64,000 nt of DNA from Hyphomicrobiales bacterium (GCA_039964305.1 JBDVXS010000141.1:2147-66146); one strand, 5' to 3'; numbered from the stretch's first letter, positions 1,781 through 40,353 are shown. The notes: generated from the sequence alone by a model not told the origin. Numbers and translations: made by a program.

Positions 1781-1792
1781 ATCTACGCCTAT

Positions 1793-1886
1793 TGTCTCGT
1801 TAGGGTCTAGACTTTATACCATTTTGTCTCACAAATGCAACAAGTATTTATATGAGACACATACCGGAAATGACTGAGACGTCTCA
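1793..1886. promoter_or_regulatory. res-like cluster of TGTCTC(A) recombinase half-sites upstream of the serine recombinase gene
   Basis: TGTCTC at 1793. TGTCTCA at 1825 faces TGAGACA at 1853, a 35-bp inverted-repeat site. A 12-bp palindrome TGAGACGTCTCA sits at 1875-1886, and GTCTAGAC at 1805-1812. The half-sites match the TGTCY core of resolvase binding sites and lie 13-106 nt upstream of the recombinase ATG. Confidence 0.5.
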
Positions 1887-1982
1887 ATGCACCTAGGTCA
1901 TTTGAGGCTCTGAATGAGAGTGGCATTTCATTGAATACCTAAATACGATATAGTGAGTTGATGGTGGCGGGAGGTGGTCAAT

Positions 1983-2702
1983 ATGAATGAAAATGCAAAA
2001 TTAGCTAAAAGTTGTACTCTACTACTAATCTCATTTCCGTTATTGGCGCTGCTAATGTTTGTTTTTTCGATTAAACAAACAGTGGCTAGTGGAACTCCAA
2101 TAGTGCTGGACATCAGTGGAAACGGAAAAATAGATATCACAGGGCACACTACAACTAGGCAGAAGCTTTATACATTGTTTTCGATAGAGCAATATGTGAA
2201 ATTCGACATCTTCAACCGAGGCGAGATGTCACAAATTGATTGGATTGCACCTGATACAGACGCTTTCTTGATTGATCTAAGAGAAGGACACCCATCAGGA
2301 AATTTAACGGGAAAGCACCTTTTTGGGACGGCAGGATTTTCATCGAATTCAGATGACGAAGGCTTCGAATTTGAAAATGGTTTCGAAAAACTGGCTACAC
2401 TTGATTTAAATCAAGACGGCAAGCTGAGCGGAGACGAATTGACCGGATTAGCCCTTTGGAAAGATGACGGTGATGCTCTTTTCGAACCTAACGAACACGT
2501 CAAGTTGTCTGACCATAAGATAGTTTCCATTTCAGTTACCTTTGAAAAATCTTCTGGGGCGTACGGTGCGCCTAAATTGACTTCTGAAGCGACGACGGAA
2601 AGTAGTTCTTCGATATACGTTGAAGACATTTGGTTTATGACCCCGAACGACGTGGCTCGCTATGATAGAATTTTCGGGCGCTTTTTCGCGGCTCTTAGGT
2701 GA
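1983..2702 (+). CDS. secreted or membrane-anchored protein with DxDxDG-type calcium-binding motifs
   Basis: GGGAGG RBS 8 nt before the ATG at 1983 (the track starts at GTG 1974). It has a hydrophobic N-terminal segment. VLDISGNGKIDITG, KHLFGT and LDLNQDGKLSGDELTGLALWKDDGD resemble the Ca-binding modules of large RTX-type adhesins. Confidence 0.5.
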   Translation: MNENAKLAKSCTLLLISFPLLALLMFVFSIKQTVASGTPIVLDISGNGKIDITGHTTTRQKLYTLFSIEQYVKFDIFNRGEMSQIDWIAPDTDAFLIDLREGHPSGNLTGKHLFGTAGFSSNSDDEGFEFENGFEKLATLDLNQDGKLSGDELTGLALWKDDGDALFEPNEHVKLSDHKIVSISVTFEKSSGAYGAPKLTSEATTESSSSIYVEDIWFMTPNDVARYDRIFGRFFAALR

Positions 2703-3383
2703 AGCGGATACTCCAGCGTAATGGGTTACTCGGGTGGCCAAGAAAATTGCGATCAGACTAAGTGCCATACCAGACAATCCCTGAATGACGATCATTGGCC
2801 TAGCATACGGACAAGCCATAAAGCCGGTATCAGGCATGCCGGGGATCGATATATTTATTGAGTAAAGGAGGTAATGCAGTGAGTTTTCAGTCATGAAGGG
2901 CTGGAAAATATCATCACGAAATTCATACCAACGGCCATGTAACTCTAAACCCTCTCCAATTCGCTCAGATAAATTACTAAAAGCCTCGTTCTTGTGAATT
3001 TCACCTATAGCTTCGTGCATAACACTCAAATTAATGGTGTTAATTTCGCTGACAGTAAGCGGGATGGTGAGACCAAAATTATAATGCACTAATGCGAACG
3101 AAAACACGGTGTATAAAAAGGCCAATCCGACAATCAGAAAACTTTCAAGTATGCCTCGGGTCGAAGAAAGCGCCCTAATTGACATGAACCAACATACCAA
3201 CAATACGGCTAGGATGAAAACATATGGGGTGAATTCAAATAGTGAACCCCACCCGTCAACATTTGGAATGTGGCAACGTTCACGAGCTGTAGTGAAATAG
3301 GTGTAAAGAAAATAAGTTGACGGCACTATTACGTATGATGCAAGCAGACGGTTTCGTGCATTCCCCATCAATTTCCCATCCAA
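2532..3383 (-). CDS. multi-pass membrane protein, function unknown (weak ion-channel-like pore segment)
   Basis: Several hydrophobic helices (FILAVLLVCWFMSI, LIVGLAFLYTVFSFALV, MALSLIAIFLATRV). The last ~55 codons are Arg-rich, low-complexity, and overlap the convergent ORF 1983-2702, so the true C-terminus is doubtful. Confidence 0.45.
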   Translation of the reverse strand: MDGKLMGNARNRLLASYVIVPSTYFLYTYFTTARERCHIPNVDGWGSLFEFTPYVFILAVLLVCWFMSIRALSSTRGILESFLIVGLAFLYTVFSFALVHYNFGLTIPLTVSEINTINLSVMHEAIGEIHKNEAFSNLSERIGEGLELHGRWYEFRDDIFQPFMTENSLHYLLYSINISIPGMPDTGFMACPYARPMIVIQGLSGMALSLIAIFLATRVTHYAGVSASPKSREKAPENSIIASHVVRGHKPNVFNVYRRTTFRRRFRSQFRRTVRPRRFFKGN

Positions 3384-3810
3384 TCACTTCTGCCCAGCAG
3401 TGCACCGACTGCAGCCTCTTATAAGGTATTTGTAACACTAACAAAAAATCAAGAGGAAAATATCAATTTTTTATACATGCAAATTCAATGATACACGCAT
3501 TGATTTTGCAATGCATTTTAGAGCGTTCAGCAGACGGGTTTTTTGTACAATCCAAGCAGGCAGGTCTAAAAAGCCAGATCGGGCCTATTAGGGGTAAAAT
3601 CTGTGATGCTACGCTTCCCTATAGACCTCGGTTTAATGGAGAAAATTGTAACCTATTCAGACGCAATGGCGGCTTCGAGCCCATCTTGTCAATTCAACAG
3701 ATAGCAACAAAAATCCGGTTGCCTAGATTGTGGTGTGCAAAAATAAAAATTTCTGTGTGGGCTTGAATGGAGCGCGGCGAAAGCCCACCTTTACTTCCTG
3801 AGAGGAAAAA

Positions 3811-4179
3811 ATGCGAGATCCAGACCTAGATCATTTTCACAATAAAGACAGGCCACGAGCATTCTGTGGGCTTGATCTGAAAAGATCGTGGGGAGAGCCT
3901 GGTGATGATGACTTTTCTTTGGAAGAACTGGAGCTCTTTGCCGACAACGCTGCATATGTAGCGGGATTGCTGCCAATCCCTGTGCCATCTCTCGCTACAC
4001 CTCTATTTGAGCGAATAGCAAAAGGTTCTGCGCGAATTTTTTTTAGAGAACTGGGAAAAACTGGACTTTATGCCTTCATTGTTGGATTAGTGTTTCACGC
4101 TCCTTTGATCTGGGCTTTCGCAGGTGAGGAAATTGCGTCCTTGGCAATTACACTGGTTGGTGAGTTCCCAGAGTTTTGA
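3811..4179 (+). CDS. hypothetical protein with hydrophobic C-terminus
   Basis: GAGAGGAAAAA RBS directly before the ATG. 122 aa with an acidic N-terminal half and a C-terminal TM-like segment LYAFIVGLVFHAPLIWAF. No family recognised. Confidence 0.4.
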   Translation: MRDPDLDHFHNKDRPRAFCGLDLKRSWGEPGDDDFSLEELELFADNAAYVAGLLPIPVPSLATPLFERIAKGSARIFFRELGKTGLYAFIVGLVFHAPLIWAFAGEEIASLAITLVGEFPEF

Positions 4180-4217
4180 GACTGGGCTCTGTCTTTTATG
4201 ATTGCAAACTAAGTGAA

Positions 4218-4403
4218 TTATAGTTTTTGCACGCTTTGCGCGATCAGTTTTTTAAAGATGTGACACTTATTTAAAGTGCGCGCAGAACTCGCATAATTAA
4301 AGTAGCCATTCGTCAGTGTCTGCTTCGTTCGCTTTACTGACTTCACGCCAGTATTCCAAACCTCGTCCCAGGGGGACAAAAAGTTAGTCAGTTTAGCGGT
4401 CAT
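4218..4403 (-). CDS. hypothetical small protein (61 aa)
   Basis: Its ATG overlaps the stop of the upstream 77-aa membrane ORF (ATGA at 4400-4403), which suggests coupling. No recognisable motif. Confidence 0.25.
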   Translation of the reverse strand: MTAKLTNFLSPWDEVWNTGVKSVKRTKQTLTNGYFNYASSARTLNKCHIFKKLIAQSVQKL

Positions 4404-4633
4404 CGACTAGCATCATCAGTCGGATCAAGCCCCAGTTTTCTGATTAACACTAGAATAATGAAGCCCACAGCCAAAGGCCACCACGAAGCAAGGTAGTACG
4501 AAGTTGCTGCAGCGCCTCCATAACAAATTGCACCTATTAGATTGCGTACGTCCTTCCCATGACGGTACTCGGTATAAATAGCAATCGCCATAAACCCGAA
4601 CACGATCTGCAAAGCCAAAAGCGTCCAAGACAT
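4400..4633 (-). CDS. small two-TM membrane protein (77 aa; holin-like size and topology)
   Basis: Two clear hydrophobic helices (LLALQIVFGFMAIAIYT and YYLASWWPLAVGFIILVLI) and a charged C-terminus. It lies downstream of the peptidase and nuclease genes on the same strand. Confidence 0.45.
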   Translation of the reverse strand: MSWTLLALQIVFGFMAIAIYTEYRHGKDVRNLIGAICYGGAAATSYYLASWWPLAVGFIILVLIRKLGLDPTDDASR

Positions 4634-4674
4634 CGTTCAAATCTCCCTCTTCTCTTGGTGAAACTTCGCTAATC

Positions 4675-5199
4675 TCACTGTAAGTTCTTACACCAGTCGA
4701 AGTCTATATCTTTAACGTAAGGTACTCCCCATCGACCTTCTCTTGCCAAAAGTGCATTGGTCACTGTGCGCCATCGATCACTGCTGTATCTCTGTTTGAT
4801 GTCAGCGATGATGCGGCCTGAAAAGCTGCCTTCCTCTATGTTCTCGATATAAACCCATGATCCAACAGGGAACCGGAGTTCAATGGCTTTCTTAGCTTCT
4901 TCTGCGATGGCTCTTTCCCAGTCACATCCAGCTCGTCTGATCTCAGGTGCATCTACTCCTCGTGAGCGAACATCAACGCTGTACTCTAGACCGGGAAGAA
5001 GGTGCAGTTTTACAGTGATAGTATCGGCATCAACAATGCGTACGATCTCACCTTCATACTGATGATAGTCAGGCTTGCCGTTTCTCAGCCTCTCAGCGTC
5101 ACCAGTGGGTTTTCCTTCTGCATGTACTTGGCCTGCTACTGCAACCAATAAAAGTATGACAGAAGTAATGGTACCTAAGCGTATGAATGGTCGTGTCAT
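4675..5199 (-). CDS. secreted thermonuclease (staphylococcal nuclease, SNase) family protein
   Basis: Signal peptide MTRPFIRLGTITSVILLLVAVAGQVHA, with an AGGA RBS 9 nt upstream of the ATG at 5199 (the track extends to 5232). VRIVDADTITV and RGVDAPEIRR match the SNase core motifs. Confidence 0.7.
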   Translation of the reverse strand: MTRPFIRLGTITSVILLLVAVAGQVHAEGKPTGDAERLRNGKPDYHQYEGEIVRIVDADTITVKLHLLPGLEYSVDVRSRGVDAPEIRRAGCDWERAIAEEAKKAIELRFPVGSWVYIENIEEGSFSGRIIADIKQRYSSDRWRTVTNALLAREGRWGVPYVKDIDFDWCKNLQ

Positions 5200-5210
5200 T
5201 AGTCGGTATC

Positions 5211-5762
5211 CTATTGATAGCGCTTCACCCAATGTGGTTTGCCGATGCGTGAGTATATTAACCTCTGTGGCTTTTCGTGCCAGCCGATATTAAAAGCGTT
5301 GTCTTTTGAGAAAAATGTCATCCAGTTATAAGGTACGTGGTCATCTATCCACCATGCCAAATCCTGCCAACTCTCTAAATCAGTCTTACCTGCATTGAAT
5401 GCGGGGATTACAATACAAGCAGTTGCGCCCATATGACCGTTTGCATCTCTGTGATCCCAAATATGGTGGGCGTAATTGCTCTCGTTTTTGGCGCAGTTCA
5501 AGCCGTGTTCATTGCCGAACTTATTTAATCTGGCAGACCGAAAGCCGGAACGGATGATGATAGGACCAAAGGCTTCGACCAACGGTTCCAAGATGTTTTC
5601 ACAAAGCTGAGTGCCAGCTTCTATTGCAAGTGCAGGATCATCGGGGGTGTTCGGAATACCGTAGGCCATGGCAATCTCTGAGTAGAGGAACTGCCGCATT
5701 TGAAAATGACGCGACAGCTTTACTTGGCCCAGCTTCTCTAAATGCCGGAATGTGGACTTCAT
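5211..5762 (-). CDS. peptidase M15-like (zinc D-Ala-D-Ala carboxypeptidase / endolysin fold) protein
   Basis: FLYSEIA...GIPNTP...LCENILEPLVEAFGPIIIRSGFRSARLN matches the M15A pattern (F..sE...a....N.P....L...leplr..fg.pi.i.SGyRs..lN). His/Asp-rich HHIWDHRD and a later GWHEKP could supply the Zn ligands. Confidence 0.45.
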   Translation of the reverse strand: MKSTFRHLEKLGQVKLSRHFQMRQFLYSEIAMAYGIPNTPDDPALAIEAGTQLCENILEPLVEAFGPIIIRSGFRSARLNKFGNEHGLNCAKNESNYAHHIWDHRDANGHMGATACIVIPAFNAGKTDLESWQDLAWWIDDHVPYNWMTFFSKDNAFNIGWHEKPQRLIYSRIGKPHWVKRYQ

Positions 5763-5784
5763 CTAAATGAACCTCGGTTCATCA

Positions 5785-6294
5785 CTAACGGACTATCTGA
5801 CAAGCTAAATCACTCGTGCTATTTTCGACGACGCTGATTTTGACGCCGCTAGTGCGTTGGCTGAATGACCCTTGCTGAATTGCGGCACCAAATATAATGC
5901 CCACTGTGCGAATTGCATCTTCCATCTTTGTTCCAGTAAGCGTTGCGAAGGCTAATGCGCACATCTCAACATTGTCAGTCATAGGCACGCGTGTGAGTGG
6001 GCTTACTTTGACAATGCCTTTGCCGTGAACGATCACATCGAAGGGTTCGTGTGTAAGTACGCAGTAATTGTCCTCTCGGCAAAACTTGCCATTGATGGTC
6101 AGAGCTTGCGCTTCACGACCATAATAACTTTTCAGATTAGCTGCGAGTTGCTCGGTAATTACTGGATTGTTCTTAGTCACTTGGTTGCTGCTAGCCGATG
6201 CCGTGCTGACGGCAGCCCCGAAGGTTAGACAAAGAACGATGGTGTTAAATAATACGCTTGCGCGATTTTGTTTGGTTGATGTGCTCATGGTCAC
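5785..6294 (-). CDS. secreted hypothetical protein
   Basis: N-terminal signal peptide (VLFNTIVLCLTFGAAVSTASA). 169 aa, no recognisable family. First gene of the minus-strand block 6294-4218. Confidence 0.5.
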   Translation of the reverse strand: MTMSTSTKQNRASVLFNTIVLCLTFGAAVSTASASSNQVTKNNPVITEQLAANLKSYYGREAQALTINGKFCREDNYCVLTHEPFDVIVHGKGIVKVSPLTRVPMTDNVEMCALAFATLTGTKMEDAIRTVGIIFGAAIQQGSFSQRTSGVKISVVENSTSDLACQIVR

Positions 6295-6718
6295 ACTCCC
6301 TATCTATGAAATGAAACGGCCACCGGAGTTTCCTCTGGTAGCCGGGGAGTTAGTAAGTCGTACAGAGACGACCGCCATGGCCTTTAGGCCTAAGCCCTGA
6401 ACATAACGCCAAAGCCTCCCCGACCATATAGGTAGAGGAAGCATCATTTCGACTGATGCCAGCCGCTCTGTAAGAGGTTACTAAGCCCCGAGACCACACA
6501 TTTGCGTAGTCCTGTCAGTAAATTACCATGTGGGGGGAGAGGTGCAAGTGTTCAGTAAGCGAATGGTGAGCTTTTTTTGACGGTCGCAATCCAATGTCAC
6601 CCCATTTGCTCATAGGTGACATCGAAATGGTATTCAAATCTGGAAGTGGCTGATTTTGTTGATGTCGGACGGAACTGATTAGCATTACCCCAGTGTCAGG
6701 TGACATCCGAATTGCTGT

Positions 6719-8176
6719 TTATGCCTCAAAATCAGCGTCACGGGCTATGTCTGTTACAGGTTGATGATTAGCTAGGATACTTGCTGCTTGATTGTAGGGC
6801 GGTGTTAGGCGAACAGTTCTTCCATTGCGAACAACTCGCTCAACAACACCTCTACGTACTAGCCTTCGAATAGGGTTCCGCATCTCATCATAGGGAACAG
6901 AGGTATAACTGCGGTTGTTGATCAGGAGTTCTAACAACAACTGCCGTATGCGTCTGTTTGGCGCAGCAAGGACAATTTCTTCTACAAGCCTGTAAGCGGG
7001 ATGATAGGTCTCGTTATGTTCGTCTTGAACTAGGAGTTCTCCGAGGCTTCTAGCATGAATTGCTGCTTGCTCTCGGCATGTACTAAGTAACTCTAATAAG
7101 CGCTCAATAGCTCCTGCGCCATCAAACGTGTGTGCAGGGCCATTTGTAGAGCGATGGCGGAAGTCACGAGTAAATTCAAAGCGCACGCTGTCATTGGTCT
7201 TTGGATAGAGCTTTGCGGTCAACCCTCGTTCTACACGCGTGCTTAGACAAGGGACATTCAGTTCTGTCTCCAAATCGCTTGTGACATTGGAATAGATACG
7301 ACGATTGCTTTCTGCTCCCAAGGCGCGGAAACGAGGCTCAACCTGCATTAGGTCATGTATCGGTTCTGCGCTGTCTAACGTCCAATAGGTTTCCACCTGT
7401 TTGATGTTGAAGTAAGTGCTGATACTGACATCAACGTGATGCCCGACGTAAGCAACTTCCCGCTGTGCCCTTCGCAGTATGGTGTCGAGTTGCTGAAGGG
7501 ACTGCCTGACATAATGATCTGAGAACTCAGAGAAGGATTGCCGTCTCAGCGCTGAATAATGATCGTTGTGATAGAATACATTGTCATCTGTAGGGTTGAT
7601 GGGACGGGTATTACCAAATTCAGGCAATTCTCTCGTATGCATTGAGATGTCACTTGCACCGGGGTTCAACGTCACCCTGCGCCCAGTTCGTAAGGGCTGA
7701 TGAATAAAGGCTCGTGTTGGGTTCAATGCAATTTCCGCATGGCCCATCATTTGGATAATATTGCTACCACGAACAGGATCATCGGCACCCGGCATCGCGC
7801 CAATACCGTCTTGATCTACAATCCAATCGTCAGGAGAGTATCCAAGGCCCGCTCTTTCGTGAGGTGTTCCGACGCTTGTCCGTTTGAACACAAATTTGCC
7901 ATCTATGAGTGGAGCGCCGACGACGGCACGATTACAACGTAAGCGAGAAGCAAAAGTGGCCTCTGCACGTATCAAAGGGGACTCACCATCTCTTATTGAG
8001 AATAATGGTACGTTTTCTGTGTCATCACCTTGAACACCACATAGGATGGACAAGTAACCAATGTAGGCAGCTATATCGCTCTCAACACCAGCTATATTGA
8101 TCCGGCAAGCATGAAGAAGTATTCTGTCGTGATGGCCAGTACTCGCTTGGAGCAAGCCTTGATTATCGGAAAACAT
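6719..8176 (-). CDS. hypothetical 485-aa island protein (possible replication-initiation-like function; weak)
   Basis: Long uninterrupted ORF adjacent to the integrase. GLTAKLYPKTNDSVRFEFTRDF weakly resembles the Rep_trans-type xYdK...xRxE motif. The Arg-rich C-terminus (RRLVRRGVVERVVRNGRTVRL) looks like a winged helix. The function call is inference only. Confidence 0.5.
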   Translation of the reverse strand: MFSDNQGLLQASTGHHDRILLHACRINIAGVESDIAAYIGYLSILCGVQGDDTENVPLFSIRDGESPLIRAEATFASRLRCNRAVVGAPLIDGKFVFKRTSVGTPHERAGLGYSPDDWIVDQDGIGAMPGADDPVRGSNIIQMMGHAEIALNPTRAFIHQPLRTGRRVTLNPGASDISMHTRELPEFGNTRPINPTDDNVFYHNDHYSALRRQSFSEFSDHYVRQSLQQLDTILRRAQREVAYVGHHVDVSISTYFNIKQVETYWTLDSAEPIHDLMQVEPRFRALGAESNRRIYSNVTSDLETELNVPCLSTRVERGLTAKLYPKTNDSVRFEFTRDFRHRSTNGPAHTFDGAGAIERLLELLSTCREQAAIHARSLGELLVQDEHNETYHPAYRLVEEIVLAAPNRRIRQLLLELLINNRSYTSVPYDEMRNPIRRLVRRGVVERVVRNGRTVRLTPPYNQAASILANHQPVTDIARDADFEA

Positions 8177-8282
8177 ACAATCTTCAGTATGTGGTTCGCG
8201 CTTCTTTACACAAGGCGCACTGACATCATGGCTAGTCTAAGTAGAAAGTTGCCCACAAATAAGATCATGATCGTAGATACAA

Positions 8283-10238
8283 CTAACCCTCGTACAAATG
8301 CGACAAGTTCAATTCTTCATACTCAACTCTGGCAACCTTATCGTACAGCTTTGTAATGAGGTGCCCACTTCCATAACGGCTGTCCATCCTTTTATAGTCC
8401 ACCCAACCCAATAATTGTTCGCGATACTCAAGACCCACATCAGCTGCACGTAAGGCGTCAGTGAACGAATTACGGAAGCTGTGGAACACTTTCCGTCTCG
8501 GAACGGACAAGCCGGTGGGCTTCATAAACACACGGAAGCGCTTAGAGAACTGATCTGACATCTTAGACGCACCTTGTAACGGCATGTCTGGAAAGAGCCA
8601 TTGTCTCTCAGATTGCTCGACGTATGACAAGAAGCCGATCTTTATCAACTCAGGATGGATTGGCACCTTTCGGAGAGAGTTCTTAGCTTTAAGCCGTTTG
8701 ATGTATTCTCCTTCTGCGGCATAGTCATTGCCATGAACCTTATCATTGACATCGAAGTAGTAGACACCATCAGCCTCCCTGATGTCGTTTTTCTCCAGTT
8801 GCAATATCTCTTGCATTCGTAGGCCCGAGAAAGCAGAGACAAGGGGCAGCCAGAAACGACTACGTCTTGGTACCTTGGGGCCAATCTTGTTTACACCGTG
8901 CCGATCATCCTGACAGCCTGTAAATAAAGGTCGATTGAAGATGATCTTTAGCTCACTTGCAGTGAACGGTTCGTAGCCTTCCTCGTGTTCAGAATAACTC
9001 TTAGGCCGCGCTGGCTTGTTGATCTTCACCCGTTGTGCTGGGTTACTGGCCAACCATTCCCGATCTACGGCGAACTCAAAAATCTCGTTGAGTACGGCTA
9101 AATTCTTACCCGCTTCGTCGTGGCGCTGTGCAGGTTCGCCATACTTTTTTGCATGGGCCTCGGAAGCCTTCCTTAAACTCATACGCTTATAGTGACGCTT
9201 TGCATAAGGAGGAATGACAACGAACAAATCAGCGATGGACTGACACTGTGCCCGAGTAATTTCAGAGAGCGGGATGGACTTGCCTACGTCTTCTTCCAGC
9301 GCACGTGTCGCCGTCTTCAGTTGATCAAAACGCGACTTCGTTATGCTCGGCTCTTTGTGTTGTAGGTACTTTTTAACAAGCTCGCCTACTCTTACACTGC
9401 GCTGTGGCTTTATCGCCGCGTTTGGCTTGAGTGCTGGAGTAAAAAGTGGATTTTGTAGAGTGGGGTGCCGGTTCTCAGAAACGGCTTCTATGCGCCGTCG
9501 AGCAATCTCTGCGTTCGCTTCTGCCAGCCGATCTGCTAGTCGCTGGAACGAGGGATTTGAGCGTAGATCGGTTGTGACCTTCAACCCAATCTGTTCGCGC
9601 ACGCCATCCCGGCCTTTTCTTTTGTAAGTGTGCTGGAAGTCGTTTTGATCAAGGAAGTGATACTTAATCAATTGCTTCAAAGCGACAAGGTGAAACACCG
9701 TTGAGATGTCTTGATCTGGGTTGCGGCATAACTTAGTTTCGTTACCAGTCGCAAAGGCGTCAGCTTCCTCGAAGTCCTCAGCAAGTTCCACCAGAATTTC
9801 ATGTCGGTTTTCATCGGTAACGCCCTTTCGATACCCGTCGCCTTTCTGGATTTGTTGTTCAAGGTCATGGAAGTAAGCGATGGCAATTTGGTCGAGCTCG
9901 TGAGCTGTAAGGCTGAATTTGAACCCGGGTTCATCATCATCACACGCCGTCACGATGGCAGGAGTGTTTTTGAGTTGACCCTCTAACCTCTTAATCTCTA
10001 TGTCGGTAGTAACGCCAAAGACTTTAGCCTTTTCACAGGCCGTTTTGTAATCAACTCCTGCAAGGCGTTCTATCCAATTCTCTTTGCCCGCCAATGTCTG
10101 GAGAGCTTTCGGGACACGCCGACGCAGCTTCCAGCCCTTATTGTCTTTACTCAGATACTGTTGTTTAGGCATGTCGTTCATGCCTAATGTGTACCACCGA
10201 TGTGTACCACTTTTCAAGAAAAAGCCTTTGAAAACCAA
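8283..10238 (-). CDS. int: tyrosine site-specific integrase (phage integrase family), unusually long at 651 aa
   Basis: The C-terminal catalytic region has LRMQEILQL (Arg box), FHSFRNSF (HxxR), LLGW and a downstream Tyr (SRYGSGH). The N-terminal WKLRRRVPKAL...AG segment is typical of alphaproteobacterial island integrases. It sits next to the tRNA 3' end. The start could be the internal MNDMPKQ at 10181. Confidence 0.85.
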   Translation of the reverse strand: MVFKGFFLKSGTHRWYTLGMNDMPKQQYLSKDNKGWKLRRRVPKALQTLAGKENWIERLAGVDYKTACEKAKVFGVTTDIEIKRLEGQLKNTPAIVTACDDDEPGFKFSLTAHELDQIAIAYFHDLEQQIQKGDGYRKGVTDENRHEILVELAEDFEEADAFATGNETKLCRNPDQDISTVFHLVALKQLIKYHFLDQNDFQHTYKRKGRDGVREQIGLKVTTDLRSNPSFQRLADRLAEANAEIARRRIEAVSENRHPTLQNPLFTPALKPNAAIKPQRSVRVGELVKKYLQHKEPSITKSRFDQLKTATRALEEDVGKSIPLSEITRAQCQSIADLFVVIPPYAKRHYKRMSLRKASEAHAKKYGEPAQRHDEAGKNLAVLNEIFEFAVDREWLASNPAQRVKINKPARPKSYSEHEEGYEPFTASELKIIFNRPLFTGCQDDRHGVNKIGPKVPRRSRFWLPLVSAFSGLRMQEILQLEKNDIREADGVYYFDVNDKVHGNDYAAEGEYIKRLKAKNSLRKVPIHPELIKIGFLSYVEQSERQWLFPDMPLQGASKMSDQFSKRFRVFMKPTGLSVPRRKVFHSFRNSFTDALRAADVGLEYREQLLGWVDYKRMDSRYGSGHLITKLYDKVARVEYEELNLSHLYEG

Positions 10239-33021: not shown

Positions 33022-33985
33022 CTTTCATAACAACGAAAGACGCGATGTGAGCAAAACAACTGATTTCTTCAATACCGCCTGTGATTTAAGTGATAAAAAT
33101 GGCTTTACTGGCAACACGCTCGACCGTCTGGGCGAGCAGCGCGATACGCTCGATTTCGATACGTTAACACGCCATGACAACGCTCGGTTCCATATTGTGG
33201 TTGGCCATGGCCAGCTCGTAAAATCAACCAAACCATTTGATGCCATCTTTACTTCTCACGACATACAAATTTTAGGCGAAGACATTCGTCAAGCTCATCT
33301 CCTCGGCATAACGAAAAATGGTGAGCCAGAGTTTGCGCTTGGTATTGCACCACGCGAAGAGTTTCCTGACGGTATGGAAGCCATCGATTTGCGCTCTGCT
33401 GCAAGAGGTGGGGTACTACGAGGCCAAGAAATTGGTGCGATTGCCCAAGCACGTTCTTTGGTTGCTTGGCATCGAAACAGTCAGTTCTGCCCAAAATGCG
33501 GGACCAAAACCAAGACAATACAAGCAGGCTATGCACGACGTTGCGAACCATGCGGCATTACGCATTTCCCACGCACGGACCCTGTTTCCATTATGCTTGC
33601 CGTTGACGGCGATCGCTGTCTGCTTGGTCGCAGCCCGCATTTTCCCGAAAACATGGTGTCAGCGCTTGCTGGCTTCATTGAAGTTGGTGAAACTGTTGAG
33701 GAGGCGGTGCGTCGCGAGATTTTAGAAGAGGCGGGCATCACGTGTCGCCGCGTGCGCTATCATTCTAGTCAGCCTTGGCCGTTTCCATCTTCGTTGATGA
33801 TTGGCTGTTTTGCTGAAGCGACGTCAACGGACATCAAGATTGATGATGAGCTAGATCTTTGTCGCTGGTTTACCCGTGATGAAACTCGGGCGATTTTGGA
33901 AAACACCCATCCAGAAGGTTTTTGGGCGCCGCCTGAAACAGCGATCGCCCATCAACTTATGCTTAGTTTTGTAGAAGGTATGTAA
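33005..33985 (+). CDS. nudC: NAD+ diphosphatase (NADH pyrophosphatase, Nudix)
   Basis: Zinc ribbon CPKCGTKT...CEPCG followed by the Nudix box GFIEVGETVEEAVRREILEEAGI and SQPWPFPSSLM. The start is uncertain; the alternative is GTG near 33046. Confidence 0.8.
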   Translation: MVKANDFHNNERRDVSKTTDFFNTACDLSDKNGFTGNTLDRLGEQRDTLDFDTLTRHDNARFHIVVGHGQLVKSTKPFDAIFTSHDIQILGEDIRQAHLLGITKNGEPEFALGIAPREEFPDGMEAIDLRSAARGGVLRGQEIGAIAQARSLVAWHRNSQFCPKCGTKTKTIQAGYARRCEPCGITHFPRTDPVSIMLAVDGDRCLLGRSPHFPENMVSALAGFIEVGETVEEAVRREILEEAGITCRRVRYHSSQPWPFPSSLMIGCFAEATSTDIKIDDELDLCRWFTRDETRAILENTHPEGFWAPPETAIAHQLMLSFVEGM

Positions 33986-34000
33986 GAGAGATTCTCTTAC

Positions 34001-34486
34001 CTACTGACCAGAACCGGCAAATGTGTTGCGCTGCTGAACTTGGGTTTGTACTTGGCCGAAGGATTCAGCAGTATCGCCAAGAGCAAGCGAACGTTCGCAG
34101 CTTGGTGAGCAGCTGTAAGTCACACGATCTGTACGACGATAGACCGTTACAGCGTTTACTGCTTCCCCTCTAACTGTCAAAAGCGTATCGGCGATCGGGT
34201 CACCATCCTTATCCAAAATAATCATATTGGTAACGCCGAAGCTTTTACCTGTAATGATCAATGTGGTGGAATCTTGCACGGTAGCGTCGGCAATACCGGG
34301 ATTGCCGATGATAATCGTTGCGGCCGGTTTTGAGACACGCATAACTTTAGCATGATCGACCGTTACCTCGATTGATTCTGCGGCTTTTGCAAAATCTGAA
34401 ACAAGCGTGGTTGAAACCATTGCACCTGCGCCAACAAGTAATGAGAGCAGTGAAATACGGGCTTTACGAGATAAAATTGACAGCAT
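34001..34486 (-). CDS. secreted protein with a pilus-formation N-terminal (secretin-N-like) domain
   Basis: Signal peptide, then VTVDHAKVMRVSKPAATIIIGNPGIADATVQDSTTLIITGKSFGVTNMIILDKDG, the pattern of the CpaC-N-like pilus formation protein N-terminal region. Confidence 0.55.
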   Translation of the reverse strand: MLSILSRKARISLLSLLVGAGAMVSTTLVSDFAKAAESIEVTVDHAKVMRVSKPAATIIIGNPGIADATVQDSTTLIITGKSFGVTNMIILDKDGDPIADTLLTVRGEAVNAVTVYRRTDRVTYSCSPSCERSLALGDTAESFGQVQTQVQQRNTFAGSGQ

Positions 34487-34695
34487 TTTTTTACGCTTTC
34501 GACATTTGAGTTAAAGCCAAGCTACTCCTTTATGGTAAATGAATGATTGACGCGGAGTGACAAGCGCACCGAAATATCGCTTTTTGGTTACGTCCGTACT
34601 TTGAATGGGACACTTGTTTTACGTTGCGCCAATACCCATCTTCGCCTAGGAACCTTTAGCTTTTATTTGTTTGCTGGGACAATTCGGAATTTTTC

Positions 34696-35496
34696 ATGAC
34701 AACATATGATGTCTATAACTCCAGCGAGGAAATTGTCTCGCTTTGTGTTGAGATTGCTAAAACGGCTATTGATGATCTCGAACATCTGGAAGAAATCTAT
34801 TCTAAGCTTGATCCTATTTTGGATGGTGTAGACCAAGAAACCGTGGACTTGGTTTTAAACAATCATACATTCCAAAAAAACCGTGATCAGCTTCACACCA
34901 AACGCGCCCATTATGAATATGACCGTGAGAAGTTGCTTGCTGACGAAATCATCGCTGAGCACAGTGCGGATATAGCCACCCGTTTTCGAAGCCATGATTG
35001 GTATGACAAGGCATTGGATTTCGAAACGACCGCCCTTGCCCCTTATGAGCTGCAAAATATTTTGTTCGTCGGCTCGGGTCCGTTCCCAACATCGCCGATG
35101 GCCTTTTTACGCAATAATCCAAGTGCCAAGGTTTCCTGCATGGAGCGCTATGAAGCCGCTTGTGTGAAAGCCCGCGCGGTTGCGGATATTTTCGGCATGA
35201 ACGCACTCAACATCATCAATGAAGAAAGCACGGATGTTACCGACTTTTCGAACTATGATTGCGTGATCGTTGGTTTGGTTGTTGGTGCTGTCCAAGAACA
35301 AAAAGCAAAAATCGTCAAACACTTCCTTGATCATGTCCCTGATAAAGCATTGCTATGTTTTCGCACCGCAGATGGTTCTGGCCAGATCATTTATCCAAGC
35401 GTGAATTTAGATCACTTGGCAGGACTAAACTACAAAGTGCTGGAAGGTCCGCCCCATAAGAGCTTTACCCTCGTAATTGTGGAACGCGGTCAATGA
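34696..35496 (+). CDS. nicotianamine synthase-like (NAS/CntL family) SAM-dependent aminocarboxypropyl transferase, paralog 1
   Basis: ILFVGSGPFPTSPMAFL is a variant of the NAS GSGPLPLT motif. YDCVIVGLVVGAVQEQKAKIVKHF, LLCFRTADGSGQIIYPSV and SFTLVIVER follow the NAS pattern (yDvVflAaLvGm..eeK; l..Rsa.G.r.flYP; NSvi.aR). Confidence 0.65.
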   Translation: MTTYDVYNSSEEIVSLCVEIAKTAIDDLEHLEEIYSKLDPILDGVDQETVDLVLNNHTFQKNRDQLHTKRAHYEYDREKLLADEIIAEHSADIATRFRSHDWYDKALDFETTALAPYELQNILFVGSGPFPTSPMAFLRNNPSAKVSCMERYEAACVKARAVADIFGMNALNIINEESTDVTDFSNYDCVIVGLVVGAVQEQKAKIVKHFLDHVPDKALLCFRTADGSGQIIYPSVNLDHLAGLNYKVLEGPPHKSFTLVIVERGQ

Positions 35497-36413
35497 CCAG
35501 AAAATCTGCATCACTAGATGAGCAAATTATCGAAATTGCCAATGTCATCGCCTTTTACGCCAAACGCCTCACCTTAATGCGCGGGCGGGATGAGACGAAA
35601 GAAGCACTGAGCCGAAGCTATTTGTCCAGCGGCAGTGCCAAGGCTGCTTATCAGACAGTGTCACCTTGGTATCAAATACTCGAACCAATTTACACGGAGC
35701 TGGAAGGCTTAATGCAGCAAGCTGACAATGCTGATACGGCGCGCATTTTGGTGGATACGCGTGTTAAACCACAGCTGGAGTATTTGCATCAGATTAGGGC
35801 TGCATATGAGTTTGACAAAGAGATTGACGCTGCAAGATCGATTTTAGATTTAAACGATCCCGCGCAACATTTGGCAGACATTATTGATCATCAATCCTAC
35901 TGGATTTTGACGGAACCCGTTTTAGAGGCTCTCAAATCTGCCCAGAATGTTGCCGTGATCGGTTCTGGCCCGCTCCCTCTCACAGCGCTCGCTGTTGCAG
36001 AACAGACAGATGCAGCCGTTACTTGTTTTGAGCTTGATCGTGAGGCCTTTGATCTCGGCAATCAAATCATCGCACATAGCCCCCAAAAACAAGCCATCAC
36101 CTGCTTGAACCAATTGGCTGAAGGCGGTGATGTTTTTGAAAAGTTTGACGCGGTTATCTCAGCTGTTCTTCTAGGGGTGGATCTTGATAGTTCAAACCAC
36201 ATTCCAAAATCTGAAACGTTGAATGGATTTTTGACCGCTGTGCCAAGCAACGCACCGGTTATTTTGCGCGATCCATTTCGTTTAGGATGCTTGTTTTATC
36301 CAGCCGCTGAAACCGATTTACTTTCAAACGTCGAGGTCAATCGCTTTGACCCTTCAACAGCAATAGGTGAACCCTATCGCTCTTCCTTCCTCATTTTGCG
36401 GACATCTGGTTGA
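35493..36413 (+). CDS. nicotianamine synthase-like (NAS/CntL family) SAM-dependent aminocarboxypropyl transferase, paralog 2
   Basis: It carries the canonical NAS motif VAVIGSGPLPLTALAV, followed by FDAVISAVLLGV, VILRDPFRLGCLFYPAAE and SSFLILR. Its ATG overlaps the stop of paralog 1 (ATGA). Confidence 0.7.
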   Translation: MTRKSASLDEQIIEIANVIAFYAKRLTLMRGRDETKEALSRSYLSSGSAKAAYQTVSPWYQILEPIYTELEGLMQQADNADTARILVDTRVKPQLEYLHQIRAAYEFDKEIDAARSILDLNDPAQHLADIIDHQSYWILTEPVLEALKSAQNVAVIGSGPLPLTALAVAEQTDAAVTCFELDREAFDLGNQIIAHSPQKQAITCLNQLAEGGDVFEKFDAVISAVLLGVDLDSSNHIPKSETLNGFLTAVPSNAPVILRDPFRLGCLFYPAAETDLLSNVEVNRFDPSTAIGEPYRSSFLILRTSG

Positions 36414-36414
36414 T

Positions 36415-37101
36415 ATGGCGACACAAGCTCCATTAAGTTATATAGCTAACTATTATGCAAGTGTTCAGACAAAGAACGCAGCGTTTCCAGAAGTTGCAGA
36501 GTTTTGGCTTTCTGGGTTTCGCCATGTGACAGGCAAGAAAGTTTTGAACCTTGGCTGCGGCCCGATGCTTTATGACAACATGCTCCGCTTTGGTGACGTG
36601 CCTGAGACCTATATCGGCCTTGATCTTAATGCCGCCTCGTTCGAGTTCTTGGAATATGGCGACCATCCCTCCCTAGTAGAAGCGCGAACCAAAGCAGAAG
36701 TCCTTTGTCCAGATATTCAGTTCGTTGCTGGTGATGTGTTCGATCATATGGCGGCCCTTGAAGGCCAATTTGATACCGTCTTGGGTATCGGGTTTTTCGG
36801 TACATTCGAAGGACAACTTTTCGATGATCTGGTTGCCGCTACCCACCAAATGCTTAAGCCAGACGGCCAGCTTTTAAAAATGACGTGGCACGGTGCGCAA
36901 CGCAGTGCGAGTGAAACCGAAGACAAATTGAAATATCGCTATGACAATGAGATTGAACCACCTGCGGACGAATTAATCCGGTTGATAGAAGCGCAAGGTT
37001 TTTCTCTCTCTGTAAATGACATCCTTGCTTGCCCACCTGACACAGTTGGATGGGACAAGATACAAGTCGCAACGTTCAACAAACAAGTCTCATCAAGATG
37101 A
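36415..37101 (+). CDS. SAM-dependent methyltransferase, NNMT/PNMT/TEMT-like (small-molecule N-methyltransferase type)
   Basis: YIANYYASV...FWLSGFRHVTGKKVLNLGCGPMLYDNMLRF...YIGLDLNAASFEFLE resembles the NNMT/PNMT family N-terminal region and its GxGP motif. The ATG at 36415 lies 1 nt after the upstream stop; the track start at 36367 overlaps the previous gene. Confidence 0.6.
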   Translation: MATQAPLSYIANYYASVQTKNAAFPEVAEFWLSGFRHVTGKKVLNLGCGPMLYDNMLRFGDVPETYIGLDLNAASFEFLEYGDHPSLVEARTKAEVLCPDIQFVAGDVFDHMAALEGQFDTVLGIGFFGTFEGQLFDDLVAATHQMLKPDGQLLKMTWHGAQRSASETEDKLKYRYDNEIEPPADELIRLIEAQGFSLSVNDILACPPDTVGWDKIQVATFNKQVSSR

Positions 37102-37970
37102 ACCAATATAACCCCTCGTTCGAGATTATCGACGCCATCCCTGATTATGCAGCATACCAAACACTGAAGACAAAGGTGATTGGTGAAACCTATGATGTTT
37201 CGGCTGCGAAACGAGGGCTTGAAAACACAGATTTTGCGGTTCATGCGATGGACGGCGGTAAATTGGTGGGCTTTGCTCGCGTTATCAGCGACCGAGGTCT
37301 TTGGTATTATTTGACCGAAGAAACAATCGACACCGAGCATCCTGAACCCGATCAAATTCGAACGGCGATGATAAAGCAACTCGTCGATCACTTTTACAAG
37401 GTCTCACCGCCCGGCGGCTATATGATGGCAATGAGTGATAAGCCAGATCTTTATCAAACAGGTGGCATGAAGCTTCTTGACCCACCAGAACGGGGTTTTT
37501 GGGTGCAACAAACTGATGAGCCAAACCCCTTCCCTAAACCAAGTGACGATCTTGGGCCTGGCTACGATGTGATTTACGAAATGGTAGACGCAGAGACCTT
37601 CTTGAAGTTTCGCGAAATCGGTAAACTTGGCAAAAAAGATTTGGCTGCCACCCATGTCAGCGTGGAACGAACACCCTTTGCGGTTCAAGTTCTTTATGAA
37701 GGCGAATGCGTCGCTTTTTGCCGTACCATGCATGATGGCGGGCTTTGCTATCATATGGCCGATGGCGTGGTGTTGCCCGACCACCAAGCAAGTGGTATTG
37801 GGAAGTTCTTTGTAAGTCGACAAATTTATGAATTTTTCAAAATGGCACCTACCGGAGCGCATTATTTAGCGTTTACTTGGGCTGGTGAGTTTGCACTTAA
37901 ATCTGGATTTGAAGAACTACCGGAAAACTATGTTGGTCTTTGGGCATGGCAACCCTTTGATGCGACTTAA
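37098..37970 (+). CDS. tandem GNAT-fold N-acyltransferase (N-terminal half degenerate, C-terminal half with acetyl-CoA motif)
   Basis: There are two repeats of a GNAT-like unit (GKLVGFARVISDRGLWYYL and GECVAFCRTMHDGGLCYHMADGVVLPDHQASGIGKFF). Only the second has the Q/R-x-x-G-x-G/A loop. The ATG at 37098 overlaps the upstream stop (ATGA). Confidence 0.55.
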   Translation: MNQYNPSFEIIDAIPDYAAYQTLKTKVIGETYDVSAAKRGLENTDFAVHAMDGGKLVGFARVISDRGLWYYLTEETIDTEHPEPDQIRTAMIKQLVDHFYKVSPPGGYMMAMSDKPDLYQTGGMKLLDPPERGFWVQQTDEPNPFPKPSDDLGPGYDVIYEMVDAETFLKFREIGKLGKKDLAATHVSVERTPFAVQVLYEGECVAFCRTMHDGGLCYHMADGVVLPDHQASGIGKFFVSRQIYEFFKMAPTGAHYLAFTWAGEFALKSGFEELPENYVGLWAWQPFDAT

Positions 37971-37978
37971 GGGGCACT

Positions 37979-38629
37979 ATGCAGATTAAAGACACTCTAC
38001 CAGAAGACCGACAGGACCGCGTTGGTTGGGCGTATAAAGTTTCAAAAGAAACCGAACGAGCACGCGAACGTTTTGATGCGTGGGCTGAAGACTATGACCG
38101 CGATGTACACGACCTTTACGGTTGGAATGGCCCTGACGCCACCCGCGACTATGTTGTAAAATATATTGCGAAAAATGCTTCCATTTTAGATGCAGGAGCT
38201 GGCACGGGCCTTATGGGCGTTCTTCTGCGTGAAAACGGTTATCACAATTTAGCAGGCACCGATATTTCGCAAAAAATGCTCAATGTTGCACGCTCTAAAG
38301 ACATCTACAAAACCGATTTTCAAGCCGACCTTACCAAGCCACTACCCGTGGATGATAACGCCTTTGATTGTATCGTCTGTGTTGGTGTTAGCGGTTATAT
38401 GATTGCCCAAACCATTGGTGATTTCGTGCGTATTCTAAAACCATCTGGTCACATCATTTATACAATCAGCGACAGCCATTATTATGAACATGGTTATAGC
38501 GATGTAGTGGACGTTTTGGTGTCAGCGGGTTCTATGAAAGTCTTGGAAAAGGGCGACGAATTTGCAGCCTTACCGATTTCTGACCCAGACCACAAAGCAC
38601 GGGTGCACGTTTATCAAAAACGCGGGTAA
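37979..38629 (+). CDS. class I SAM-dependent methyltransferase
   Basis: ILDAGAGTGLMGVLL is motif I, GTDISQKML is motif II, and FDCIVCVGV and LKPSGHIIYT follow. An AAGGGG RBS lies 8 nt after the upstream stop. Confidence 0.75.
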   Translation: MQIKDTLPEDRQDRVGWAYKVSKETERARERFDAWAEDYDRDVHDLYGWNGPDATRDYVVKYIAKNASILDAGAGTGLMGVLLRENGYHNLAGTDISQKMLNVARSKDIYKTDFQADLTKPLPVDDNAFDCIVCVGVSGYMIAQTIGDFVRILKPSGHIIYTISDSHYYEHGYSDVVDVLVSAGSMKVLEKGDEFAALPISDPDHKARVHVYQKRG

Positions 38630-38635
38630 ACTGGA

Positions 38636-39421
38636 TTAGTCTCTTCGGAATATCACGCTGGAAAGCCAACCTGTCAGCATCGCGATAATCACGCAGATAA
38701 CACCGTAGAGATAGCCATAATTGCGTGAGAAACTATAGGTCGCTTGCTCGAAACCTTTCTTGCGGACATTGATTGCATGTGTCGAGCCTGAAACCAATTC
38801 ATTATCAAGCAGCAAATAACTACGTACCTGATGGATACCCACAGGAACAAGTGGTGGAATTTGGATACGCGCTCTGAACAGATTATCACCCAAAAACTCA
38901 ACACCAACGTTTTGGCGATAAAGCTGGTTTCCCATTTTCAACCGAACAATGGCTTTGCGAAAATCTTTGACATCACCGTCCGTTTCAACATTGGAGATAT
39001 CACCCATCTGCATATAGTCAAAGCCAACCTGCAAAGCTTTTAAGGCATCATCGAAACCCGGCTTTTCCATATCAGCCGATGTTTGCATCAAATAAGAGGA
39101 CGGAATATCGCCGAACTCGACATTCTCCTTATTAATCCAAATACCCGCGGCCCGTTGTTTCTTACGAACAACGCCGGGTTCTTTTGGACCTTCCATCACA
39201 ATCACAACATCATAGCGCTCAACGGTAATCTCTTCACCCGTATCACCTGCCGGTTTTTGCATATCGTTGATCGTGCCAAAAATGACAAGCTCGGTCCCGT
39301 TGAAGTCTGAGGTGATGAATACCGTTTCATTCGTCAAACCCGTGACCAATTGCTGAGCATTGGCGGCCTGCACCCAAAACCCAACCATAAGAGCAACGAT
39401 GGCTTTTGTTATATTGGTCAT
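38636..39421 (-). CDS. TIGR02186-type alphaproteobacterial membrane protein (Alph_Pro_TM)
   Basis: Signal peptide, then ITSDFNGTELVIFGT, YDVVIVMEGP, VRKKQRAAGIWIN and a C-terminal TM segment. It is paired with a TauE/SafE permease, as is conserved in alphaproteobacteria. Confidence 0.65.
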   Translation of the reverse strand: MTNITKAIVALMVGFWVQAANAQQLVTGLTNETVFITSDFNGTELVIFGTINDMQKPAGDTGEEITVERYDVVIVMEGPKEPGVVRKKQRAAGIWINKENVEFGDIPSSYLMQTSADMEKPGFDDALKALQVGFDYMQMGDISNVETDGDVKDFRKAIVRLKMGNQLYRQNVGVEFLGDNLFRARIQIPPLVPVGIHQVRSYLLLDNELVSGSTHAINVRKKGFEQATYSFSRNYGYLYGVICVIIAMLTGWLSSVIFRRD

Positions 39422-40353
39422 TAGTGCCCTCCAAATCCGATGGAGAACAATTCGCCTGGCGTCGCAATCAATTCATAGCCAAGACGGGCGCAAACGCCCA
39501 ATACGATTAAAGCAAGCAGCGCTCGTAATTGCTCGCCTTTGAGTTTTTGACCCGTACGCGCGCCAAACTGTGCACCAACCACTCCACCAACCATTAAGAT
39601 GAAGGCAAGCATCACATCAACGGTGAAGTTGGAGCCTGCTTGGATGATTGTCGTGAACATGGTCACGAACATGATTTGAAAGAGTGAGGTTCCAATCACA
39701 ACATTGGTCGGCACGCGAAGGAGATAAATCATGGCAGGAACCATGATGAAGCCGCCGCCCACACCCATAATCGCTGCCAAAACACCAACCAACGCACCAA
39801 TCAACAAGACGGGGATTGCGCTGATATAAAGCTTGGATCGCTTAAACCGCATTTTAAACGGCAACCCATGAATCCAGTTGTGCTGACCCGGCATTTTCGC
39901 CTTCAGCTGCTTGCCTGCTTTCGCGGCCTGCGCCGACCGACGAATAAAGCCAACGCTCTCATAAAGCATCAAACTACCAATGGAACCGAGAAAGCCAACA
40001 TAGGCAAGTTTAATGATGAGATCGAGCTGACCAATTTGTCGAAGAAAGCCAAACAGTAGCACGCCCATAAGAGAGCCAACCAAACCACCAGCCAGCAGCA
40101 GCGAGCCAAGTTTAAAATCGATGCTTTTTCTACGAAAGTGAACAAGCGCACCTGAGAAAGAAGACGCAACAATTTGGTTTGCTTCAGTGGCAACAGCAAC
40201 AGCCGATGGAATGCCTGAGAAAATCAAAAGTGGTGTCATTAAAAAACCACCACCAACCCCAAACATACCCGACAAAAAGCCCACAGCCGCACCCATGCCC
40301 AAGAAGATGAGCACATTTACCGGAAGTTCGGCAATAGGTAGGTACAGATACAT
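39421..40353 (-). CDS. TauE/SafE family anion exporter (sulfite exporter family permease)
   Basis: About 8 TM helices with repeated GVGGGF(L/I)M(T/V)P motifs, one in each half. Confidence 0.75.
   Translation of the reverse strand: MYLYLPIAELPVNVLIFLGMGAAVGFLSGMFGVGGGFLMTPLLIFSGIPSAVAVATEANQIVASSFSGALVHFRRKSIDFKLGSLLLAGGLVGSLMGVLLFGFLRQIGQLDLIIKLAYVGFLGSIGSLMLYESVGFIRRSAQAAKAGKQLKAKMPGQHNWIHGLPFKMRFKRSKLYISAIPVLLIGALVGVLAAIMGVGGGFIMVPAMIYLLRVPTNVVIGTSLFQIMFVTMFTTIIQAGSNFTVDVMLAFILMVGGVVGAQFGARTGQKLKGEQLRALLALIVLGVCARLGYELIATPGELFSIGFGGH

Follow-up and report, generated by a model that had tools for sequence, protein, structure and literature searches.

A 64,000-nucleotide (nt) stretch of DNA from a Hyphomicrobiales bacterium (GCA_039964305.1, JBDVXS010000141.1:2147-66146; the whole stretch is called the window here) carries a translationally coupled operon of five genes, g1 to g5, which on balance, and with guarded confidence, we take to direct the synthesis of an undescribed small molecule derived from S-adenosylmethionine (SAM). 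In our model, the product is a nicotianamine-like compound that is made independently of CntM, is N-methylated and N-acetylated, and is possibly a metallophore. The model rests on the two predicted nicotianamine synthase (NAS)-family enzymes that head the operon, on the predicted methyltransferases and GNAT-type acetyltransferase that follow them, on the conservation of the five-gene order, and on a transporter that adjoins the cassette in related bacteria.

Two predicted NAS-family enzymes

NAS activity consists in the transfer of a 3-amino-3-carboxypropyl (ACP) unit from SAM with release of methylthioadenosine. Both g1 and g2 exceed the 27.1-bit gathering score of the Pfam NAS model PF03059 (66.5 and 41.8 bits, respectively), which is also annotated on their homologues at all loci, and both fall in the NAS family rather than among ordinary methyltransferases, as a first-pass annotation of the window had assigned them. 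A profile of the g1 family reaches MtNAS (3fpe; E=1e-11) and places the invariant E78 of g1 on the catalytic E81 of MtNAS; Y103 of g1 is the equivalent of Y136 of g2 in a joint alignment of the two families, and the hidden Markov model alignment of g1 with MtNAS puts the tyrosine 3 residues off. GSGPFP and an acidic β2 residue are conserved in the g1 family. The g2 profile matches Staphylococcus aureus CntL (7c9m) at E=8.5e-10, and its E110 and Y136 align to Glu81 and Tyr107 of MtNAS, the residues that deprotonate the acceptor amine (PMC10491745). When the AlphaFold2 (AF2) model of g2 (pLDDT 88.8) was compared with the PDB by Foldseek, ranks 1-12 were all MtNAS or CntL over their full length, with target-normalised template-modelling (TM) scores of 0.72-0.79, followed by a sharp drop to TM <=0.44 over the query for the next matches.

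In the joint alignment, R-A-x-Y-E-x-x-x-E, GSGPxP, an arginine (R259) and the proline of (F/I)YP are invariant and the tyrosine is nearly so; the motifs singled out in the first-pass annotation, VIGSGPLPLTAL in g2, VGSGPFPTSPM in g1 and the C-terminal R..G...(I/F)YP in both, are all found. The two proteins share ~24% identity with each other, compared with a mean column identity of 60% (g1) and 54% (g2) within their own families. Against the CntL equivalog NF033601, g2 scores 33 bits vs the 350-bit cut-off and g1 gives no match, and by this measure g2 is not a CntL orthologue. The PF03059 scores of the cassette enzymes (42-67 bits) also lie far under those of three other NAS-family matches of an exhaustive search (196-216 bits). 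Judged from their sequences, g1 and g2 are two distinct NAS-family enzymes with the catalytic residues kept.

The constant pairing of g1 and g2 could instead mean that they form an obligate heteromer that performs one ACP transfer, with one subunit being regulatory or presenting the substrate, so that the scaffold would contain one ACP unit. The two genes always occur together and overlap (through ATGA in the window and in several other loci), and one distant variant of the cassette (L006, see below) has one g2-like NAS alone. In both families, however, strong constraint acts on the catalytic Glu and Tyr, the glycine-rich SAM motif and the acidic β2 residue, all of which are kept; this is not expected of a non-catalytic partner, and we consider an obligate heteromer improbable.

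Conservation and hosts of the cassette

Co-conservation of the five genes, the check suggested with the first-pass annotation, was found across divergent loci and different flanks: the order g1-g2-g3-g4-g5 is the same at 14 other loci, which all come from uncultured marine Hyphomicrobiales or Alphaproteobacteria, at 35-88% identity and in several flanking contexts, and in tblastn searches it recurs in every locus long enough to show order. The loci form two clades. Clade A (L001, L003, L010-L013), to which the window belongs, carries a tandem GNAT in mostly syntenic surroundings, with 42-88% identity for g1, g2, g3 and g5, and clade B (L004/5, L007/8, L009, L014-L016, L021, L022) has ~40-52% identity and unrelated flanks. 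Ratios of nonsynonymous to synonymous substitution (dN/dS) between the window and L010, with dS near saturation, are 0.045-0.10 across all five genes (0.063 for g1 and 0.091 for the degenerate N-terminal domain of g4) and 0.056 for nudC; all five genes, the degenerate GNAT domain included, are under purifying selection.

Word-indexed searches of 5.8 billion proteins returned 16 relatives of g1, 28 of g2 and 16 of g3, and an exhaustive HMMER search with g1 against 1.84 billion cluster representatives returned 72 matches at E<1e-10, of which 15 lay at E<1e-30. The cassette is present in 7 of 185,579 species genomes scanned, all of them metagenome-assembled genomes (MAGs) assigned to Hyphomicrobiales, Alphaproteobacteria or Pseudomonadota, and two source datasets are marine (one biofilm, one pelagic). 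The window itself matches an NCBI MAG of a Hyphomicrobiales bacterium at 100% identity. Altogether, the cassette is very rare but conserved.

One complete cassette (L009; GCA_024449835.1, JAANTA013203240.1) lies on a 7.7-kb contig. Contig numbers in that assembly exceed 13 million, and the cassette is probably bacterial DNA within a large assembly of eukaryotic or environmental origin.

Predicted tailoring enzymes

The best Pfam match of g3 in the window is TPMT (28 bits), generic matches are weak, and PF01234 (NNMT_PNMT_TEMT) gives no match at E<=1; 10 of 21 members of the g3 family match PF01234 weakly (best E=2.8e-6). NNMT and INMT give the highest TM scores (0.63-0.69) against the AF2 model of g3 (pLDDT 93.9), at 12-16% identity, and g3 carries the motif GCGPMLYDN, in which we take GCGPMLYD to resemble GSGPTIYQ of NNMT. 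Thus g3 appears NNMT-like by fold and motif, outside Pfam-level membership of PF01234, and the earlier description of it as an NNMT/PNMT-type enzyme stands for the fold, which is closest to NNMT and INMT, but not for the family match in Pfam.

The product of g4 is an internal duplication of a ~140-aa GNAT, both halves of which align to the single-domain homologues of clade B, and the domain-family profile matches SA2161 (1y7r), an uncharacterised GNAT of S. aureus, at E=3.5e-24. The C-terminal domain reaches 23.6 bits against Pfam Acetyltransf_1 (cut-off 20.7 bits) and has an intact acetyl-CoA motif, HQASGIGK; the N-terminal domain also matches 1y7r, with the Q-x-x-G-x-G motif replaced by EHPEPDQIRT. 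The double GNAT of the first-pass annotation is accordingly a tandem GNAT, but one of its domains is without the acetyl-CoA motif. A single intact motif per protein is the commonest state of g4. The degenerate domain precedes the intact one in the window, L003 and L010, the order is reversed in L001 (10447-11376) and L013 (4192-5142), both copies are intact in L011 (3781-4710), and clade B has one GNAT domain, which is intact. That the intact half differs suggests that one site has decayed repeatedly within a fused pseudo-dimer or that the duplications arose independently.

The last gene, g5, matches Methyltransf_11 (53.9 bits) and Methyltransf_25 (52.0 bits) above threshold, in agreement with its earlier assignment as a class I SAM methyltransferase; its closest PDB match is METTL27 (7qcb, E=4.6e-14), and it closes the cassette in each five-gene locus long enough to include it. 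For none of the five proteins does an NCBIfam equivalog model reach its cut-off.

Organization of the operon

The five genes (Table 1) are co-directional, and all junctions are as first annotated, both in the list of open reading frames (ORFs) and in the sequence itself. ATGA overlaps join g1 to g2 (35493-35496) and g3 to g4 (37098-37101); 1 nt separates the g2 stop codon (TGA, 36411-36413) from the ATG of g3 (36415); and 8 nt separate the g4 stop codon (TAA, 37968-37970) from the ATG of g5 (37979), with AAGGGG at 37969-37974. For g4, an in-frame ATG at 37050 is an alternative start, and we prefer the ATGA-coupled start at 37098 as the simpler choice. The mechanical ORF list offers GTG at 36367 as a start for g3; the homologues favour 36415, since they all begin M..QAP(Y/L).YI.

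Table 1 Features of the five-gene cassette in the window
Feature	Coordinates	Strand	Description
5' intergenic region	34487-34695		Presumed promoter-bearing; 209 nt between divergent pilus-N gene and g1
g1	34696-35496	+	NAS-family (MtNAS-like) predicted aminocarboxypropyl transferase, 266 aa
g2	35493-36413	+	NAS-family (CntL/MtNAS-fold) predicted aminocarboxypropyl transferase, 306 aa
g3	36415-37101	+	Cassette-specific class I SAM methyltransferase, NNMT/INMT-like fold, 228 aa
g4	37098-37970	+	Tandem GNAT, 290 aa
g4 N-terminal GNAT domain	37098-37532	+	Degenerate acetyl-CoA site
g4 C-terminal GNAT domain	37533-37970	+	Predicted active acetyltransferase, intact motif
g5	37979-38629	+	Class I SAM methyltransferase (METTL27/UbiE-like), 216 aa

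Distant variants of the cassette

Two distant loci, both GC-rich and both from SRR31575927, retain part of the cassette in other company. L024 (1-5951) has g1-, g2- and g3-like genes followed by an Asp/Asn-hydroxylase-like gene, with a protein with RTX repeats upstream, and in L006 (2349-9700) the g2-like and g3-like genes are accompanied by those for a different methyltransferase, an ATP-grasp ligase, a HalD/BesD-like 2-oxoglutarate oxygenase (HxD type) and an ABC-2 exporter. The invariant core is a g2-type NAS plus the g3 methyltransferase, and its persistence in both loci suggests that g3 acts on the product of g2.

Outside the cassette, a 435-aa protein from a Candidatus Doudnabacteria MAG (P0086, MBP9686269.1) is a fusion of a NAS domain (207 bits) to a GNAT without detectable sequence similarity to g4; it is an independent association of NAS with an acetyltransferase and shows that the NAS-GNAT pairing recurs. 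A 2670-aa protein found only in a Logan assembly (P0074) contains two NAS-domain stretches and an MFS transporter domain, and may be a eukaryotic or merged gene model; here, too, a pair of NAS units adjoins a transporter.

Transport and regulatory context

In clade B, five loci have an orthologous EamA/DMT transporter gene (64-84% identity among loci) beside the cassette and on the same strand; it immediately follows the cassette in L004, L007 and L015 and immediately precedes it in L021 and L022. Its best model is a carboxylate/amino-acid/amine transporter family, and it has weak similarity to the amino-acid exporter YddG. The association survives rearrangement and therefore argues for a functional link, suggesting export of an amino-acid-like product. 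The first-pass annotation had reported a cassette without a transporter, which holds for the window but not for these five loci. Among the called genes of related loci with gene tables, none for a CntM-like dehydrogenase, an importer or a TonB receptor is linked to the cassette.

The EamA gene bears directly on two other possible functions. One is that the cassette makes an intracellular compatible solute or betaine, with one or two ACP units on a small amine whose nitrogen is exhaustively methylated, as in the head group of the betaine lipid DGTS or in diphthine, and/or acetylated, like that of N-acetylated osmolytes. Two methyltransferases and an acetyltransferase suit known osmolyte chemistry, the hosts are marine, and the window's clade is without an adjacent exporter; the conserved EamA of the other clade nevertheless indicates export, a whole SAM is spent per ACP transfer, which is costly for a bulk solute, and the cassette is far too rare for general osmoadaptation, making a solute unlikely.

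The other is a toxic amino-acid analogue, either an azetidine-type compound or a glutamate- or methionine-analogue antimetabolite, with the GNAT providing self-protection or a protecting group and EamA providing efflux. Clusters for azetidine-2-carboxylic acid (AZE) synthases often carry N-acetyltransferases and DMT transporters that possibly detoxify AZE (PMC11794875), plant NAS makes an azetidine ring (PMC10491745), and the distant variants have natural-product-style partners (the HalD-like oxygenase, the ATP-grasp enzyme and the ABC exporter). Eight of 16 GNAT domains weakly match the ArsN2 family of resistance acetyltransferases, but these matches are far under threshold; moreover, the GNAT is translationally coupled between both methyltransferases in every five-gene locus, as expected of a biosynthetic step, and the five-gene form is without a non-ribosomal peptide synthetase (NRPS) or ligase. 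We therefore regard a toxic analogue as distinctly unlikely.

Upstream of the operon, a search of Rfam over 33900-39000 gave nothing at E<=1 except two chance-level matches, and over 12 related loci nothing reached the gathering score, so that a riboswitch or leader was rejected for lack of Rfam support. Aligned upstream regions of clade A have no common motif, with conservation confined to the two closest loci. A weak test with consensus sequences for Zur, Fur, Irr, Mur and RirA boxes gave scattered single matches upstream of 16 loci, none of them consistent among loci, and no such box in 34487-34695; no promoter-like site is listed for that interval. A palindrome-like element lies ~80-100 nt upstream of g1 in two loci (CTGATCGCTCAGATCA in L015 and CTGATTGCTCAGATTA in L007), where it precedes a promoter-like hexamer, TTGACTTC; it was not seen in the other loci and could be an operator.

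Genomic surroundings

Upstream, the neighbour is a divergent pilus-assembly gene, 209 nt from g1. Downstream, a convergent Alph_Pro_TM gene ends 6 nt past g5 and, together with a TauE/SafE gene, occupies 38636-40353 on the minus strand. We considered this pair as the cassette transporter and rejected it: the pair is not beside the cassette in L001, and in L003 TauE is 88% identical, compared with ~50-66% for the cassette genes, so that the pair looks like a conserved housekeeping neighbour outside the cassette. In L001, cobW lies 4 kb away from the cassette and was considered as a link to zinc, but it has no counterpart in the window and was taken as a coincidence.

The flanks are those of an ordinary alphaproteobacterial chromosome, with chvI-chvG-hprK-EIIA(Man), nudC, flagellar genes and his genes. 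Recent horizontal transfer of the operon is not supported, because its GC content (0.45-0.48) matches that of the flanks and the clade A flanks are syntenic. Elsewhere in the window, a mobile-element-like block (1214-10238) lies beside a ROK kinase gene and mnmA. On the minus strand it encodes a serine resolvase (1214-1780) and a 651-aa protein in which a tyrosine-recombinase domain is weakly recognised (8283-10238); between these two genes lie six ORFs (1974-8176) of 169-485 aa without a Pfam match.

Proposed pathway

In the pathway that we favour, the cassette would plausibly carry out two ACP transfers followed by N-methylation and N-acetylation. The g2 enzyme would add an ACP unit to the amine of an amino acid and g1 would extend it with a second, in the manner of the iterative MtNAS, to give a nicotianamine- or thermonicotianamine-like chain in which two amines are secondary and one, at the terminus, is primary. 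Both g3 and g5 would then methylate heteroatoms, most simply the two secondary amines, and the single active GNAT domain of g4 would acetylate the terminal α-amine, placing the acetyl cap where CntM acts in opine-type pathways. The count of two secondary amines and one primary amine fits two methyltransferases and one acetyltransferase. What the analysis establishes is the gene structure, the assignments to family, fold and catalytic motif, the co-conservation, rarity and purifying selection of the genes, and the association with a transporter; the acceptor, the order of the steps, the positions that are methylated and acetylated, and the role of the product in the cell's biology are inferred. 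In related organisms, the dedicated EamA/DMT transporter would export the product, and an extracellular role is therefore most likely, with metal binding favoured. To our knowledge, characterised NAS-family pathways are few, comprising plant/fungal nicotianamine, archaeal thermonicotianamine and bacterial cnt, and all of them yield metal chelators; because of this, and of the EamA link, we favour a secreted chelator.

An acceptor other than a free metabolite is conceivable, in which case the cassette would modify a macromolecule such as tRNA, protein or lipid. ACP is transferred to RNA, protein and lipid by enzyme families non-homologous to NAS, while free amino acids are the substrates of all characterised NAS-family enzymes (PMC10491745). 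The nearest folds to g3 are small-molecule methyltransferases, the linked transporter is of the carboxylate/amino-acid/amine type, and modification of a macromolecule is very improbable.

Several points weigh against a secreted, N-methylated and N-acetylated chelator. No exporter adjoins the cassette in clade A, and the ORFs scanned across the 64-kb window include no importer, TonB receptor or CntM; the absence of CntM, already noted in the first-pass annotation, extends to the called genes of the related loci with gene tables. There is no recognisable metal-regulator box or riboswitch upstream of the operon. N-acetylation takes away a group that could donate to a metal. The two methyltransferases could act on O or C, g5 being generic and g3 having its best Foldseek E-value with Ecm18, and g1 and g2 might, as a heteromer, perform a single transfer. 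Finally, the product, the acceptor and the link to metal are themselves inferred.

Comparison with known systems

The cassette resembles the cnt clusters for opine metallophores (staphylopine, pseudopaline, yersinopine and bacillopaline) in that a NAS-family enzyme acts first and transfers ACP from SAM to an amino acid, that g2 has the CntL fold (profile match E=8.5e-10), and that part of the cassette family has a linked EamA-type exporter, as in the pseudopaline/yersinopine type; cnt clusters of the pseudopaline type typically carry EamA exporters (PMC7438024). It differs in being without CntM, CntK and an importer and in having two divergent NAS paralogues vs one. Methyltransferases and a GNAT form a fixed core of the cassette, whereas they are occasional accessories in cnt: a survey of cnt clusters records additional methyl- and acetyltransferases in occasional clusters and a single additional cntL (PMC7438024). 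Because that survey was centred on CntM, it could not have found the five-gene set. In its function the cassette resembles the front end of the cnt/NAS pathways, but its gene content, with no CntL equivalog, CntM or importer, places it outside cnt.

MtNAS and the plant and fungal NAS have the same fold and keep the equivalents of Glu81 and Tyr107, and MtNAS builds its chain by two successive ACP transfers onto glutamate, the scaffold logic that we propose for the cassette. In these archaeal, plant and fungal systems, by contrast, one enzyme iterates, no tailoring genes are linked, and identity to the cassette enzymes is ~13-20%. The BtaA/BtaB pathway to betaine lipid and the Dph2/Dph5 pathway to diphthamide likewise transfer ACP from SAM and then methylate the new amine with SAM, but their ACP transferases are non-homologous to NAS (PMC10491745), they act on a lipid or a protein, and neither pathway includes an acetylation step. 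The AZE-synthase clusters (AzeJ/VioH) also use SAM for an ACP building block and often include an N-acetyltransferase and a DMT transporter (PMC11794875); their synthases, however, are cyclases of the class I methyltransferase fold rather than NAS-family enzymes, and most of the clusters supply an NRPS or another peptide-forming enzyme, of which the cassette has none.

A megablast search against plasmids gave no match, and we found no description of the five-gene set in the literature or in curated models. The first-pass annotation knew of no characterised pathway with such a composition, which is borne out by the lack of both an NCBIfam equivalog and a published description. The cassette thus brings known enzyme families together in a new conserved architecture, which predicts a new product.

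Implications

The combination of dual NAS, two methyltransferases and a GNAT without an opine dehydrogenase would be a further architecture among NAS-family pathways, and it leads us to expect a new scaffold, with SAM-derived ACP units tailored by new chemistry. Because the cassette is confined to uncultured marine bacteria, the product is reachable only by synthetic expression. More specifically, it is tempting to speculate that the cassette defines a new class of nicotianamine-like metallophore, built by two ACP transferases, with N-methyl/N-acetyl capping in place of opine formation by CntM, and exported by uncultured marine Hyphomicrobiales and other Alphaproteobacteria; we put this forward as a tentative and rather doubtful proposal. 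A metal-binding product would bear on the question of which organisms make marine trace-metal ligands, and a true metallophore would be a candidate part of the pool of strong organic trace-metal ligands in seawater, a pool that is chemically unidentified. If instead the product binds no metal, the known functional range of the NAS family would widen.

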